Source: Shigella phage ESh33. From it: a stretch of 64,000 nucleotides of DNA. A model generated the notes under the pieces. That model saw nothing but the letters and a program-made list of their open reading frames with translations. It did not search any database and had not been told where the DNA came from. How positions within the stretch are numbered: the stretch's first letter is position 1; each line of letters begins with the position of its first letter. Shown piece by piece: positions 32,666 to 35,029 of this stretch. The translations under genes and the position numbers were made by a program. Where the stretch lies: the sequence record ON528743; one strand, given 5' to 3'.

Positions 32666-32752
32666 GAATTATTTGTTATTATTAACTCATACCGCACTGA
32701 TTAATACCCTCTATCATCAAGGGTTCTTATTTGAGAGCCTTTGTTAATAATT

Positions 32753-32824
32753 GGGAATTAGCCAAGTTGGTAAGGCACTGGATTTTGATTCCAGGATGCA
32801 AAGGTTCGAGTCCTTTATTCCCAG
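32753..32824 (+). tRNA. tRNA-Gln (UUG)
   Basis: Acceptor TGGGAAT/ATTCCCA; anticodon stem CTGGA/TCCAG, loop TTTTGAT; T-loop TTCGAGT. Confidence 0.85.
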
Positions 32825-32825
32825 C

Positions 32826-32912
32826 GCGAGAATGGTCAAATTGGTAAAGGCACAGCACTTAAAATGCTGCGGAATGATTTCCTTGTGGGTTCGAGTCCCA
32901 CTTCTCGCACCA
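32826..32912 (+). tRNA. tRNA-Leu (UAA)
   Basis: Acceptor GCGAGAA/TTCTCGC; anticodon loop CTTAAAA; long variable arm; 3' CCA encoded. Confidence 0.85.
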
Positions 32913-32917
32913 AATTT

Positions 32918-32991
<74 letters not shown>

Positions 32992-33001
32992 ATTTAATTT
33001 A

Positions 33002-33075
33002 CTCCGTGTAGCTCAGTTTGGTAGAGCGCCTGATTTGGGATCAGGAGGTCCAAGGTTCAAATCCTTGTATGGAGA
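33002..33075 (+). tRNA. tRNA-Pro (UGG)
   Basis: Acceptor CTCCGTG/TATGGAG (two G-U pairs); anticodon stem CCTGA/TCAGG, loop TTTGGGA; T-loop TTCAAAT. Confidence 0.8.
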
Positions 33076-33078
33076 CTG

Positions 33079-33167
33079 GAGGCGTGGCAGAGTGGTTTAA
33101 TGCACCGGTCTTGAAAACCGGCAGTCGCTCCGGCGACTCATAGGTTCAAATCCTATCGCCTCCGCCA
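33079..33167 (+). tRNA. tRNA-Ser (UGA)
   Basis: Acceptor GGAGGCG/CGCCTCC; anticodon loop CTTGAAA; long variable arm; 3' CCA. Confidence 0.85.
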
Positions 33168-33172
33168 GTTTT

Positions 33173-33248
33173 GCTGATTTAGCTCAATAGGTAGAGCAAC
33201 TCACTTGTAATGAGAAGGTCGGCGGTTCGATTCCGTCAATCAGCACCA
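33173..33248 (+). tRNA. tRNA-Thr (UGU)
   Basis: Acceptor GCTGATT/AATCAGC; anticodon loop CTTGTAA; T-loop TTCGATT; 3' CCA. Confidence 0.8.
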
Positions 33249-33249
33249 A

Positions 33250-33324
33250 GGCCCTGTAGCTGGAAGGTTCAAGCAAGCGACTCATAATCGCCAGATGGTG
33301 GTTCAATTCCACCCAGGGCCACCA
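33250..33324 (+). tRNA. tRNA-Ile (CAU; lysidine-type as in T4) or tRNA-Met
   Basis: Acceptor GGCCCTG/CAGGGCC; anticodon loop CTCATAA; T-loop TTCAATT; 3' CCA; Ile assignment by analogy to T4. Confidence 0.75.
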
Positions 33325-33330
33325 AATTAA

Positions 33331-33417
33331 GGGGAGTTATCCCGTAGAGGTAGCGGTGTGGACTGTAAATCCATTGTCATTGCGACTCGGGTGGTTCGAC
33401 TCCATCACTCCCCACCA
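33331..33417 (+). tRNA. tRNA-Tyr (GUA)
   Basis: Acceptor GGGGAGT/ACTCCCC; anticodon stem TGGA/TCCA, loop CTGTAAA; long variable arm; T-loop TTCGACT; 3' CCA. Confidence 0.75.
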
Positions 33418-33421
33418 ATTT

Positions 33422-33496
33422 GGATGTGTAGCTCAATGGCAGAGCGATCGCCTGTTAAGCGATTGGTTATAGGTTCGAATCCTATCACGTCCGCCA
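33422..33496 (+). tRNA. tRNA-Asn (GUU)
   Basis: Acceptor GGATGTG/CACGTCC; anticodon stem ATCGC/GCGAT, loop CTGTTAA; T-loop TTCGAAT; 3' CCA. Confidence 0.75.
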
Positions 33497-33501
33497 AATT
33501 T

Positions 33502-33612
33502 GTGACAACTGTCACATTAATATCTACTTGACGCGATTATAGGGGTTGAACTGATCACTCTTCTCTTAATTTCGTGTGAAGACATCATGATTGTTGGAGT
33601 AGATATTAATGT
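33502..33612 (+). repeat. structured tRNA spacer: palindrome GTGACAACTGTCAC plus 15-bp inverted repeat ACATTAATATCTACT / AGTAGATATTAATGT
   Basis: Left arm 33514-33528, right arm 33598-33612 (perfect reverse complements); right arm overlaps first bases of tRNA-His. Confidence 0.7.
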
Positions 33613-33686
33613 GGCCGTAGTTCAGTTGGTAGAACTCGAGATTGTGATTCTCGTAGTCATGGGTTCGACTCCCATCGGTCACCCCA
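33610..33686 (+). tRNA. tRNA-His (GUG)
   Basis: Acceptor GTGGCCG/CGGTCAC; anticodon stem CGAGA/TCTCG, loop TTGTGAT; T-loop TTCGACT; 3' CCA. Confidence 0.7.
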
Positions 33687-33690
33687 ATTA

Positions 33691-33766
33691 CGGGGCATAG
33701 CTCAGAAGGAAGAGCAAGGACCTTCTAAGTCCTAGGTCGTAGGTTCGATCCCTACTGCCTCGACCA
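33691..33766 (+). tRNA. tRNA-Arg (UCU)
   Basis: Acceptor CGGGGCA/TGCCTCG; anticodon stem AGGAC/GTCCT, loop CTTCTAA; T-loop TTCGATC; 3' CCA. Confidence 0.8.
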
Positions 33767-33784
33767 ATTATAAGTGAGGAAAAT

Positions 33785-34135
33785 ATGAAAGGTAATGTTT
33801 ATTTAGTAGTTCATGATTTAACATTCTATTTTAATCATAATGATACTGCTATTTCTGAACGTGTAATTAATTTACTTTATCAGCATGCAGATTATGTTTA
33901 TGTTGAAAATGAATTTGGCCATTGGCAATTTCTCAAAAATCGTTCATTTGGTTTAGATGGTTACGAATACTTTGATCGTAAAGACCTTTTAGATACAATT
34001 CCATTATCTACACAATATCAAAATCATAAGTCTTTACATAAATGCCGGCTAATTCGAAATGCTGAATCTGCGTATGAAGCAATTGATTTATGGCGTAAAC
34101 GCCGTGAACAGATTGATGCTTTAAAAGAATATTAA
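33785..34135 (+). CDS. hypothetical protein, 116 aa
   Basis: ORF starting 19 nt after tRNA-Arg with RBS GAGGAAAAT. Confidence 0.5.
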   Translation: MKGNVYLVVHDLTFYFNHNDTAISERVINLLYQHADYVYVENEFGHWQFLKNRSFGLDGYEYFDRKDLLDTIPLSTQYQNHKSLHKCRLIRNAESAYEAIDLWRKRREQIDALKEY

Positions 34136-34139
34136 GAAA

Positions 34140-34475
34140 CCGGGTCGCTACCGGTAAGTCGTCGGACTGATGTTCCCTGTTTAAGGACTGGCATTAATAA
34201 ATCTTTATGTTTTGTTAATGTCCCCTTATATCACAGCAGAAACGGCGCACCGAATTATCGATTCGAGGAAATATCTTTGCCGTAAGCCGAGTAGCGTTTT
34301 TGACGGAACGTTCGGATATGGTCGAGATATGGCCTTTTAAAAATATTGAGTAGCGTCAACTGCTTGATAACCGGGTTCGAATCCCGGCGTTTCGTACAAA
34401 CACTTGCCTTAGCAGGTGGAACCCCGACAAGGTTGCCGCAAGGCTTAGCCCCAGCCGAAAGGTTGGGGCTTTTTA
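34140..34475 (+). ncRNA. putative structured stable RNA region (GC-rich, no ORF, tRNA-like T-arm hairpin), possibly T4 species 1/2 (rnaC/rnaD)-like
   Basis: No ORF of 60 aa or more on either strand; GC-rich vs flanks; CCGGGTTCGAATCCCGG at 34370-34386; hairpin CGAAT-TATCG-ATTCG at 34250-34264; ends in terminator. Confidence 0.35.
34446..34473 (+). terminator. intrinsic terminator (AGCCCCAGCC-GAAA-GGTTGGGGCT + T-run)
   Basis: 10-bp GC stem, GAAA tetraloop, TTTT. Confidence 0.7.
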
Positions 34476-34520
34476 GTATAAATAAGTATATTAAATCTAC
34501 AAATTAAAACAGGAAATAAG

Positions 34521-34994
34521 ATGAAATCATATACTCAATTTTTAAATGAAGCGGTGTTAAATGAAGCGTCTAGCACCGAAATTCAAGCTGTCGCAAAAGC
34601 AGCCATTGCAGCGGGTAAATATTCCTATAAAGATGCTTCTGATGAATCACGATTCCAATTTGCTCGCGACATGAAAGCAGAAGGATTTACGGGGAATGCT
34701 GTTAGTATGGCCTGGAAAAGTTTAGTTGCTACTGGCGCTGCTTTTGCAAAGGCTTCAGGTAAACCTGCTCCTAAAGCAGATCCTAAAGTCACACAAGAGA
34801 AAAATATCGTTAAAGGAATTATCTCCAAATATGAAGCTATCCTTAAAGAGCTTTTAGTAATCAAAACTGAAGGCCAAAAGCTAGCTCGTGCTTATAGTTT
34901 CAAAGATAACCCACATGTTCACTCTCTTGAGTATGTTGAAGACATCCAAAAAATTATTAAAGACCGCATTTGGTCTGCTAAACAAATCAAATAA
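34521..34994 (+). CDS. internal-protein-like capsid-targeted protein, 157 aa
   Basis: N-terminus MKSYTQFLNEAVLNEAS resembles the IP capsid targeting sequence with LNE cleavage motifs; bracketed by near-identical terminators. Confidence 0.6.
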   Translation: MKSYTQFLNEAVLNEASSTEIQAVAKAAIAAGKYSYKDASDESRFQFARDMKAEGFTGNAVSMAWKSLVATGAAFAKASGKPAPKADPKVTQEKNIVKGIISKYEAILKELLVIKTEGQKLARAYSFKDNPHVHSLEYVEDIQKIIKDRIWSAKQIK

Positions 34995-35001
34995 CATTCT
35001 T

Positions 35002-35029
35002 AGCCCTAGCCAAAAGGTTGGGGCTTTTT
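35002..35029 (+). terminator. intrinsic terminator (AGCCCTAGCC-AAAA-GGTTGGGGCT + T-run), near-duplicate of 34446-34473
   Basis: Same stem with two substitutions that keep pairing via G-U, then TTTTT. Confidence 0.7.

Follow-up and report, generated by a model that had tools for sequence, protein, structure and literature searches.

Shigella phage ESh33 (sequence record ON528743) carries, at the end of its transfer RNA (tRNA) operon, homologues of two small stable RNAs of phage T4, rnaD (species 2 RNA) and rnaC (species 1 RNA). We analysed a stretch of 64,000 nucleotides (nt) from this record, hereafter the window, whose segment 34140-34475 is a T2/T4-type rnaD and rnaC, followed by a trailer and the terminator of the tRNA operon. 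Species 1 and 2 RNAs of T4- and T2-like phages have been known since the 1970s; the segment being homologous to them, the element is therefore an already known one. Our confidence in the explanation as a whole, in which identity, biogenesis, structure and a proposed function are taken together, is high.

Identity of the segment

A blastn search with positions 34130-34490 against 50,697 phage records returned matches in 805 records, nearly all of them from T4-like enterobacterial phages, and in 679 the match extends over 80% or more of the query. Identity is 100% with Shigella phage ESH35, 95.3% with Aplg8 and 93.6% with a T4 isolate. Positions 34132-34474 are colinear with T4 rnaD (NC_000866 71053-71171, 119 nt), a 6-nt spacer, rnaC (70908-71046, 139 nt), a trailer and a terminator, and the Aplg8 record annotates rnaD, rnaC and a terminator at the matching place. 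By three-way alignment, the rnaC genes of T4 and the window differ by only 3 substitutions across 139 nt; they share length, strand and position, after rnaD and before the operon terminator, and only their flanks differ (T4 versus T2L-type). The two rnaD genes, both directly upstream of rnaC, have an identical core (HP1, P2, GACUGA/GAAA, P3 and CCCUG/UCAC), with divergence confined to the apical hairpin, which is of the T4 version in T4 and of a T2-type version in the window. The tRNA array (32752-33766), rnaD, rnaC and the terminator (34447-34474) follow one another in the window, placing the two RNAs at the same operon-end position as in T4. A first-pass annotation, made from the letters alone, had suggested that the segment encodes one or two stable, structured RNAs and had named T4 species 1 and 2 among the possible homologues; the base-for-base alignment bears this out.

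The ends of the RNAs in the window were transferred from the T4 annotation. The 5' end of rnaD is uncertain because an open reading frame (ORF), rather than tRNA-Arg, stands upstream. The features of the locus are as follows.

34132-34251, + strand: rnaD homologue (species 2 RNA, ~120 nt), from alignment to T4 and Aplg8 rnaD and from its fold
34140-34154, + strand: rnaD HP1, CCGG-GUCGCUA-CCGG, with compensatory changes among 30 sequences
34158-34164, + strand: rnaD P2 5' strand, GUCGUCG, pairing with 34243-34250 (CGGCG-C-AC, one bulged C) in the RNAalifold consensus
34165-34179, + strand: rnaD core, 5' side, with GACUGA (34165-34170), P3 UGUU (34171-34174) and loop CCCUG (34175-34179)
34180-34230, + strand: rnaD variable apical hairpin, T2-type, at a position with at least five unrelated types
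34231-34250, + strand: rnaD core, 3' side, with UCAC (34231-34234), P3 AGCA (34235-34238), GAAA (34239-34242) and P2 CGGCGCAC (34243-34250)
34252-34257, + strand: spacer GAAUUA (AAAUUA in T4), corresponding to the 6-nt gap between T4 rnaD and rnaC
34258-34396, + strand: rnaC homologue (species 1 RNA, 139 nt), from alignment to T4 rnaC and from its fold
34259-34265 with 34388-34394, + strand: rnaC acceptor stem CGAUUCG/CGUUUCG, from covariation and minimum-free-energy (MFE) folds
34266-34335, + strand: rnaC long arm at the D-arm position, with base AGG (34266-34268)/CCU (34333-34335) and hexaloop UUGACG (34300-34305)
34344-34369, + strand: rnaC hairpin 2 at the anticodon-arm position, with a 10-bp stem and hexaloop CGUCAA (34354-34359)
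34371-34387, + strand: rnaC T arm CCGGG-UUCGAAU-CCCGG (CCGGGTTCGAATCCCGG), from covariation, with a canonical T-loop
34397-34446, + strand: 3' trailer with the hairpin CACUUGC-CUUA-GCAGGUG (34401-34418), conserved in T4, Aplg8 and Dhakavirus and, by the T4 annotation, not part of the mature RNA
34447-34474, + strand: intrinsic terminator of the tRNA/stable-RNA operon, AGCCCCAGCC-GAAA-GGTTGGGGCT then TTTTT, with 10 pairs, 7 of them G-C

The first-pass annotation had also described the segment as free of ORFs of at least 60 aa, GC-rich relative to its flanks and closed by a strong intrinsic terminator, and all three descriptions hold. The longest frames on either strand of 34140-34475 measure 53, 42 and 34 aa, all starting with TTG. 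Its GC content is 47.6%, the same figure as that of the tRNA array, compared with 29.6% in the upstream 116-aa ORF, 38.0% in the downstream 157-aa ORF and 35.8% in the whole window. The motifs that it quoted are all present, at positions 1 nt higher than it gave: CCGGGTTCGAATCCCGG at 34371-34387, CGTTTCG at 34388-34394, CGGAACG at 34304-34310 and CGAATTATCGATTCG at 34251-34265. The last of these, the short hairpin CGAAT-TATCG-ATTCG, exists as a sequence and spans the rnaD/rnaC junction; its 3' arm is the 5' strand of the rnaC acceptor stem, so the hairpin could form at most in the precursor.

Most of the public annotations that cover rnaD and rnaC are wrong; they comprise hypothetical proteins (up to three per locus), a tRNA-Lys (phage 55), a tRNA-Met (SonariX) and an Early E3 16 kDa glycoprotein (SF2-1).

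Architecture of rnaC

Both RNAs fold beyond chance, rnaC at -49.3 kcal/mol as a single sequence (z = -3.8, with none of 200 shuffles folding as well) and the window's rnaD at -34.2 kcal/mol (z = -2.4 to -2.9), and compensatory substitutions occur among relatives in the helices of each. For rnaC, we compared 20 distinct sequences among homologues from Tequatrovirus, Gaprivervirus, Karamvirus, Moonvirus, Kanagawavirus, Gelderlandvirus, Marfavirus, the Edwardsiella phage PEi20 group and others. In the resulting consensus, 87.4% of cells were paired, as against 26-45% when the partners were slid by one to three columns, and 12 pairs had changed on both sides, a number reached by none of 500 shuffles. 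Covariation thus supports a predicted fold in which rnaC is a four-arm cloverleaf and a mimic of tRNA, with an oversized arm at the D-arm position. With both hexaloops held unpaired, the same cloverleaf was obtained in representatives of ten lineages at a cost of 0.2-2.2 kcal/mol, and it is the unconstrained MFE fold in four of six representatives.

The acceptor helix, CGAUUCG/CGUUUCG, was kept in all 20 homologues and found in every MFE fold. Within the helix, pair 4-139 alternates between G-C (13 sequences) and A-U (7 sequences), the pairs flanking it are invariant, and so are the tandem U·U mismatches at the helix center. The first-pass annotation had instead joined CGGAACG with CGTTTCG as an acceptor-like stem. 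In 8 of 18 sequences this pairing is broken by an A·C mismatch, and phages with other long-arm types lack its 5' strand; CGTTTCG pairs with the 5'-terminal CGAUUCG. The canonical T stem with a TTCGAAT loop, by contrast, was correctly recognized, with T-stem pair 120-132 covarying (U-A in 12, G-C in 6) beneath a loop of UUCGAAU or UUCGAGC. Hairpin 2 shows compensatory changes in nine of its ten stem pairs. The long arm, of ~70 nt, is opened by a 3-bp stem, AGG/CCU, and is followed by an A/U-rich linker and then hairpin 2. It comes in at least four types that cannot be aligned to one another (T4/KM16, fGh-Ecl01/Melville, PEi20/NM4.3 and MY02). Immediately before the CCU strand, a GG dinucleotide (34331-34332) is invariant, and we interpret it as being placed like G18-G19 of the tRNA D-loop.

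With a canonical tRNA, rnaC shares a 7-bp acceptor stem (two of its positions U·U) on a 5-bp T arm with a 7-nt T-loop, a four-way junction and a discriminator-like U. It deviates in the tandem U·U of the acceptor stem, in carrying a ~70-nt arm in place of the D arm, and at the anticodon position, where a 10-bp stem bears a 6-nt loop, CGUCAA, with no U33. The 3' flank reads U-ACA-AA in most genera and U-CCA-AU in Marfavirus, resembling the CCAAAU that trails this phage's true tRNAs. A CCA is encoded in Marfavirus rnaC only, whose 3' end is CGUUCCG-U-CCA, whereas Tequatrovirus rnaC ends in UA(CAAA). Of the two absences that the first-pass annotation had noted, that of a CCA end therefore stands for Tequatrovirus, while that of a cloverleaf does not, since the 139-nt rnaC is predicted to fold with four arms. 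Other tRNA-like domains processed by RNase P include that of transfer-messenger RNA (tmRNA), mascRNA and the tRNA-like structures of plant viruses.

Complementary hexaloops

The apical loop of the long arm, UUGACG (34300-34305), and the loop of hairpin 2, CGUCAA (34354-34359), can form six Watson-Crick pairs, a full match that two given hexamers would show by chance with a probability of 1/4,096. UUGACG forms exactly the apical hexaloop in each constrained fold, at a fixed distance from the 5' end across all long-arm types, and CGUCAA is exactly the hairpin-2 hexaloop in all ten. The loop-loop helix is 100% paired in the 20 sequences and includes one double change (A-U in 18, G-C in 2): in the Marfavirus phages MY02 and Clarke the loops read UUGGCG and CGCCAA, a compensatory double change. 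From these sequences, the hexaloops could form a six-base-pair kissing contact, either within one molecule or between two. With its hexaloop paired in such a contact, intra- or intermolecular, rnaC would be unable to decode. Six-base-pair kissing complexes are familiar from ColE1 RNA I/RNA II and the HIV-1 dimerisation site, and rnaC likewise has two fully complementary hexaloops; unlike in those systems, both loops lie within one 139-nt RNA.

Architecture of rnaD

Single-sequence z-scores for rnaD were modest (-0.2 to -2.9), and the structural evidence is therefore mainly comparative. It comes from 30 distinct T4-like and rV5-like sequences together with CR9, KM16 and SonariX. The layout comprises HP1, a (Y)AA linker, P2, the GACUGA/GAAA internal loop, a 4-bp P3, the CCCUG/UCAC loop and a swappable apical hairpin. 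Covariation supports this predicted fold of a two-helix core, P2 and P3, accompanied by HP1 and the swappable hairpin. In HP1, pair 10-26 is A-U in 20, G-C in 6 and G-U in 4 of the 30 sequences, pair 11-25 is C-G in 28 and U-A in 2, and pair 12-24 is C-G in 29 and A-U in 1; KM16 and SonariX have an unrelated 7-bp hairpin in its place. In P2, the innermost pair is switched from G-C to C-G in CR9, and a G-C pair becomes G-U in A5-4. Three columns of P3 read UA17/AU8/GC1 with four mismatches, GC29/AU1 and UG29/CG1 in the 30 sequences, giving the variants UG/CA, AG/CU, GA/UC and U·G to C-G, and P3 is also altered in KM16 and SonariX (UUGUU/AACAA against UUAAU/AUUAA). The junction GACUGA and the loop CCCUG are invariant or nearly so in the 30 sequences. 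The apical hairpin, on the other hand, occurs in at least five unrelated versions on identical cores, with foot pairs that covary (G-C in 11, A-U in 11, C-G in 2). A short version, with loop AGUUCCCUCAACGAUAAC, is common to Vequintavirinae, Certrevirus, Moonvirus and SonariX.

Other structures for rnaD were considered and rejected. The MFE pairing CUG/CAG given by ViennaRNA is broken by the Dhakavirus and A5-4 variants, which keep P3 as NNUU/AGNN. With the hammerhead core CUGANGA...GAAA, rnaD shares a CUGA facing a GAAA and an upstream GUC. The bases following CUGA are, however, paired and covarying (UG/CA, AG/CU, GA/UC), so that the hammerhead N7-G8-A9 is absent; the junction is two-way rather than three-way, species 2 RNA accumulates intact, and no Rfam hammerhead match appeared at E up to 10. 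For GACUGA/GAAA, K-turn, sarcin-ricin and loop-E motifs were compared by eye, and the consensus fits none of them.

The HP1 loop, GUCGCUA (34144-34150), is complementary to UAGCG, which is present twice in T4-type rnaC (34291-34295 and 34350-34354), each copy lying in the 5' strand of the stem that closes one of the two hexaloops. Outside Tequatrovirus this complementarity is not kept, and it is thus probably coincidental.

Distribution of rnaD and rnaC

The two RNAs occur independently of each other. Dhakavirus phages (IME08, SHP1) have rnaD without rnaC, rnaD continuing straight into the trailer and terminator. The genera Karamvirus, Moonvirus and Gelderlandvirus have rnaC flanked by tRNA-Trp and tRNA-Gly, and thus bounded by tRNA processing sites; no rnaD adjoins it, and a divergent rnaD-like element is found elsewhere in the array, after tRNA-Asn. 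In the rV5-like phages A5-4, W70, A73, UPEC06 and LTH01, one or two rnaD-like elements directly follow tRNA-Met and tRNA-Tyr. Cronobacter phage CR9 has one between tRNA-Lys and tRNA-Asn, with a further element, module X, intervening after tRNA-Lys. The loci in these Vequintavirinae (A5-4, W70, CR9) are L003 1609-1712 and 2500-2625, L004 2493-2596 and L179 1478-1580. One A5-4 copy is 85.5% identical to the element of the Dhakavirus phage JS98, a likeness in sequence that indicates exchange of rnaD between phage subfamilies.

No second rnaD copy was found in the window. A blastn search of the region against 5,426 complete Escherichia coli genomes, which bears on a host origin, gave no match at E up to 1. 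When 185,579 genomes of bacteria and archaea, one per species, were scanned with a strict core pattern, seven matches appeared, all without other features of the family, and the same pattern in metagenomes returned only T4-like contigs and chance matches. In IMG/VR, the 14-mer AGTCGTCGGACTGA gave 112 matches, and the element itself was present only in T4-like contigs. At locus L112, a shared stretch of 18 nt lies where an ORF ends, and we regard the match as fortuitous.

Two further elements accompany these RNAs. In JS98-like contigs (L054, L078), a much shortened copy of the rnaD core, GACUAUUAUAUAGUC AAGCCGUCG ... GACUGA ... CGGCGCAAC, stands between tRNA-Arg and the full rnaD; with GAAA and the apical hairpin missing, it looks like the remnant of a tandem duplication. 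Module X (GUGGAAAUAUCUUCAGG, a hairpin, CCCUGCGGCCCAC) is a third small conserved structured element (L175 548-590, L176 547-589, L179 1427-1469). In Marfavirus it separates rnaC from a tRNA, and in CR9 the rnaD-like element from tRNA-Lys. It has GGAAAUAUCUU in common with the T4-type long arm of rnaC.

Biogenesis and possible functions

In T4, a tRNA-cluster transcript of ~1.75 kb is the precursor of eight tRNAs and the species I and II RNAs, and stops after the species I gene (PMC2330249). RNAC has been seen by Northern blot, and a 2022 transcriptome and proteome study places RNAC and RNAD among the late RNAs, with functions as yet unknown (PMC9697503). The anatomy of the locus, together with these data, suggests that rnaD and rnaC would form the last part of the tRNA-cluster transcript and would then be excised from it. 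Of the determinants used by RNase P, rnaC has a U at -1 and an acceptor stem of 7 bp that stacks on a T arm of 5 bp, so it would acquire its 5' end through an RNase P cut at ~34258/34259, and this cleavage would also free rnaD. The mature ends would arise from endonuclease cuts in the A/U-rich spacers, which are typical targets of such enzymes, and from 3' trimming to the closing helices; we infer that the spacer 34252-34257 is a processing site.

As to function, we tentatively suggest that both are stable RNAs that may act in trans, engaging host factors of defence or of tRNA recognition, with rnaC serving as a tRNA decoy. As a decoy or sponge that does not decode, rnaC would capture a host factor reading the acceptor/T-arm half of tRNAs, candidate targets being defence nucleases directed at tRNAs and enzymes of processing or modification, and rnaD would be a protein-binding RNA with its conserved internal loops as the binding site. 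A role in trans is favoured by the counter-defence function of neighbouring tRNAs, by the mobility and independence of the two modules, by loops that stay invariant while stems change, and by a convergent, host-specific single-nucleotide polymorphism (SNP). On the first of these, a 2026 study, in which rnaC and rnaD are not mentioned, found the adjacent T-even tRNA genes to be counter-defence, with Septu cleaving tRNA-Tyr and SegB amplifying the locus (PMC13096335). On the last, a single SNP in rnaD of a T4-like phage arose convergently in all three lines adapting to host ECOR34, as reported in 2025 (PMC12685909); from the coordinates given there, it lies approximately 41-46 nt from the rnaD 3' end, in the variable hairpin. 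It is conceivable, if rather unlikely, that T4-like and rV5-like phages carry in their tRNA arrays a set of mobile, modular structured RNAs, rnaC and rnaD among them, that act as counter-defence decoys with host-tuned peripheral hairpins, a kissing-locked rnaC titrating a tRNA-targeting nuclease or sensor and rnaD binding a second host factor. Host tuning of the swappable hairpins would be in line with the convergent rnaD SNP under ECOR34.

Several points weigh against parts of this explanation. The kissing-loop covariation is a single evolutionary event, in Marfavirus, and the A-U/G-C covariation of the acceptor stem may likewise be one event, dividing Tequatrovirus from the other genera. To meet the 10-bp hairpin within one molecule, the ~70-nt arm must bend sharply, so the contact may be intermolecular, and the complementarity of the hexaloops may serve something else. 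In rnaD, the junction of KM16 and SonariX is GCAGC or GCAC facing AUA, so the GACUGA/GAAA loop marks a subfamily and is not universal. The T4 tRNA region is non-essential for phage development (PMC2330249). Finally, the literature gives the roles of rnaC and rnaD as unknown, from a review in 2010 (PMC3014915) to papers in 2022 (PMC9697503) and 2025 (PMC12685909).

Alternatively, both RNAs could be functionless leftovers that persist through nuclease-resistant folds, rnaC as a tRNA gene in decay and rnaD as a structured spacer. Such an origin would suit the tRNA-derived look of rnaC (T arm, 7-bp acceptor stem and a 3' flank, UACAAAU, like the tRNA-trailing CCAAAU), the dispensability of the tRNA region (PMC2330249), and the existence of Dhakavirus without rnaC and of Karamvirus without a T4-type rnaD beside rnaC. 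A pseudogene, however, would not retain its helices by compensation, as rnaC has done in nine of ten hairpin-2 pairs, the T stem and the acceptor stem. The complementary hexaloops have outlasted replacement of the stems beneath them, the rnaD core is invariant around at least five unrelated apical hairpins, and rnaD has spread across phage subfamilies, all of which makes loss of function doubtful.

A role in cis also appears unlikely. According to this explanation, the two elements are scaffolds by which the tRNA operon is processed or terminated: they direct RNase P or RNase E, shield 3' ends or insulate tRNAs from the terminator, and the free RNAs are by-products. Their positions would fit: rnaD-like elements nearly always abut the 3' end of a tRNA, be it Arg (T4, Dhakavirus), Met and Tyr (A5-4, W70) or Asn (KM16, SonariX), CR9 has a short structured element between tRNA-Lys and the rnaD-like element, and several genera have rnaC with a tRNA on either side. 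Here and in other T2-type phages, however, rnaD does not directly follow a tRNA 3' end; the 116-aa ORF parts it from the last tRNA and the element is unaltered, and adjacency to a tRNA is therefore typical rather than obligatory. Neither the conserved internal loops nor the kissing-loop pair would be needed in a processing signal, and most tRNAs of the same arrays have no such neighbours.

We consider it very improbable that rnaC is a real tRNA, intron-bearing or otherwise unusual, that is active in translation. With introns allowed, ARAGORN calls a tRNA-Leu(taa) with an intron at 34303-34397, GenBank records place tRNA-Met (SonariX) and tRNA-Lys (phage 55) over rnaC, the Rfam tRNA-Sec model scores 16.4 bits, and Marfavirus encodes a CCA. 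The ARAGORN call is false: such calls depend on the internal CGGAACG strand, which is rejected by covariation, and the pairing CGGAACG/CGTTTCG, which the intron mode uses, is probably also behind the misannotation of tRNAs by pipelines. At default settings, ARAGORN finds neither tRNA nor tmRNA in 34140-34475, and the tRNA-Sec score, from the only tRNA-like match in Rfam, falls far below its cut-off of 47 (E = 2.8). The would-be anticodon loop, moreover, measures 6 nt above a stem of 10 bp, has no U33 and is the complement of a second rnaC loop, and there is no normal D arm. The pairing of a tRNA-like domain with a tag reading frame, as in a tmRNA, was not found with ARAGORN either, whose -ps80 setting gave only a forced, permuted tmRNA call. 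A scan of the whole window against Rfam 15 at the gathering score gave no family for the segment, and over 33760-34560 only chance-level matches appeared at E up to 10 (snoR53, isrK, tRNA-Sec and others), which were discarded.

Lastly, small proteins encoded by the 42-aa ORF (34212-34340) and the 53-aa ORF (34346-34507) are extremely improbable: GenBank hypothetical proteins lie under the match and short TTG-start ORFs are present, but close relatives differ by 1-nt indels (an extra G and other indels in T4 rnaD, one T fewer in L090 rnaC), whole arms are swapped for unrelated sequence, substitutions are coupled by base pairing and not placed at third codon positions, and the ORFs have no ATG and cross the RNA boundaries and the terminator.

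Flanking genes

The segment lies between two ORFs, both assigned by PHROGs to families of unknown function.

33785-34135: 116-aa ORF between the tRNA array and rnaD, phrog_3355
34521-34994: 157-aa ORF downstream of the segment, phrog_2280

Upstream, ARAGORN at default settings places 11 tRNA genes in the window, spanning 32752-33766. The 116-aa ORF is trna.2 of T2L, as it is matched by primers #24 and #25 of PMC2330249. It sits between tRNA-Arg and rnaD, which in T4 are 1 nt apart, and its stop codon (34133-34135) overlaps the 5' end of rnaD as defined in T4. Flanks of the T2L type lack segB and have additional tRNAs (Met, Tyr, Asn and His) and the ORF trna.2 (PMC2330249). The flanks in the window are T2L-type, and the window is a T2/T4-type Tequatrovirus.

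Within the array, the 114-nt spacer between tRNA-Asn and tRNA-His (33497-33610) is conserved with Karamvirus ZX13 (L118 ~495-595), as TTGACGCG...GGGTTGAACTGATCACTCTTCTCT.AATTTCGTGTGAAG.CATCATGATTG, and could be an internal promoter or a further small RNA. On the downstream side, a terminator after the 157-aa ORF (35002-35025, AGCCCTAGCCAAAAGGTTGGGGCT) nearly duplicates the rnaC terminator (34447-34470, AGCCCCAGCCGAAAGGTTGGGGCT). With near-identical terminators on both sides, the ORF at 34521-34994 is therefore a cassette between duplicated terminators, which suggests that it was inserted through recombination at the terminator.

Significance

rnaC and rnaD are ordinary components of a T-even phage, and the value of identifying them here lies in correct annotation at a locus where public records err and Rfam lacks a family. 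We did not find the structural features described above in the searchable literature, although papers from the 1970s may describe some of them. The function of the species 1 and 2 RNAs has been open for ~50 years, and their comparative structure offers handles for experiment: the acceptor stem with its invariant U·U, the UUGACG/CGUCAA pair, the invariant junctions of rnaD, the independence of the two modules and the rnaD copies of Vequintavirinae. Since counter-defence is now an established role of phage tRNA clusters, a decoy function, if true, would add a new RNA-based class of anti-defence.

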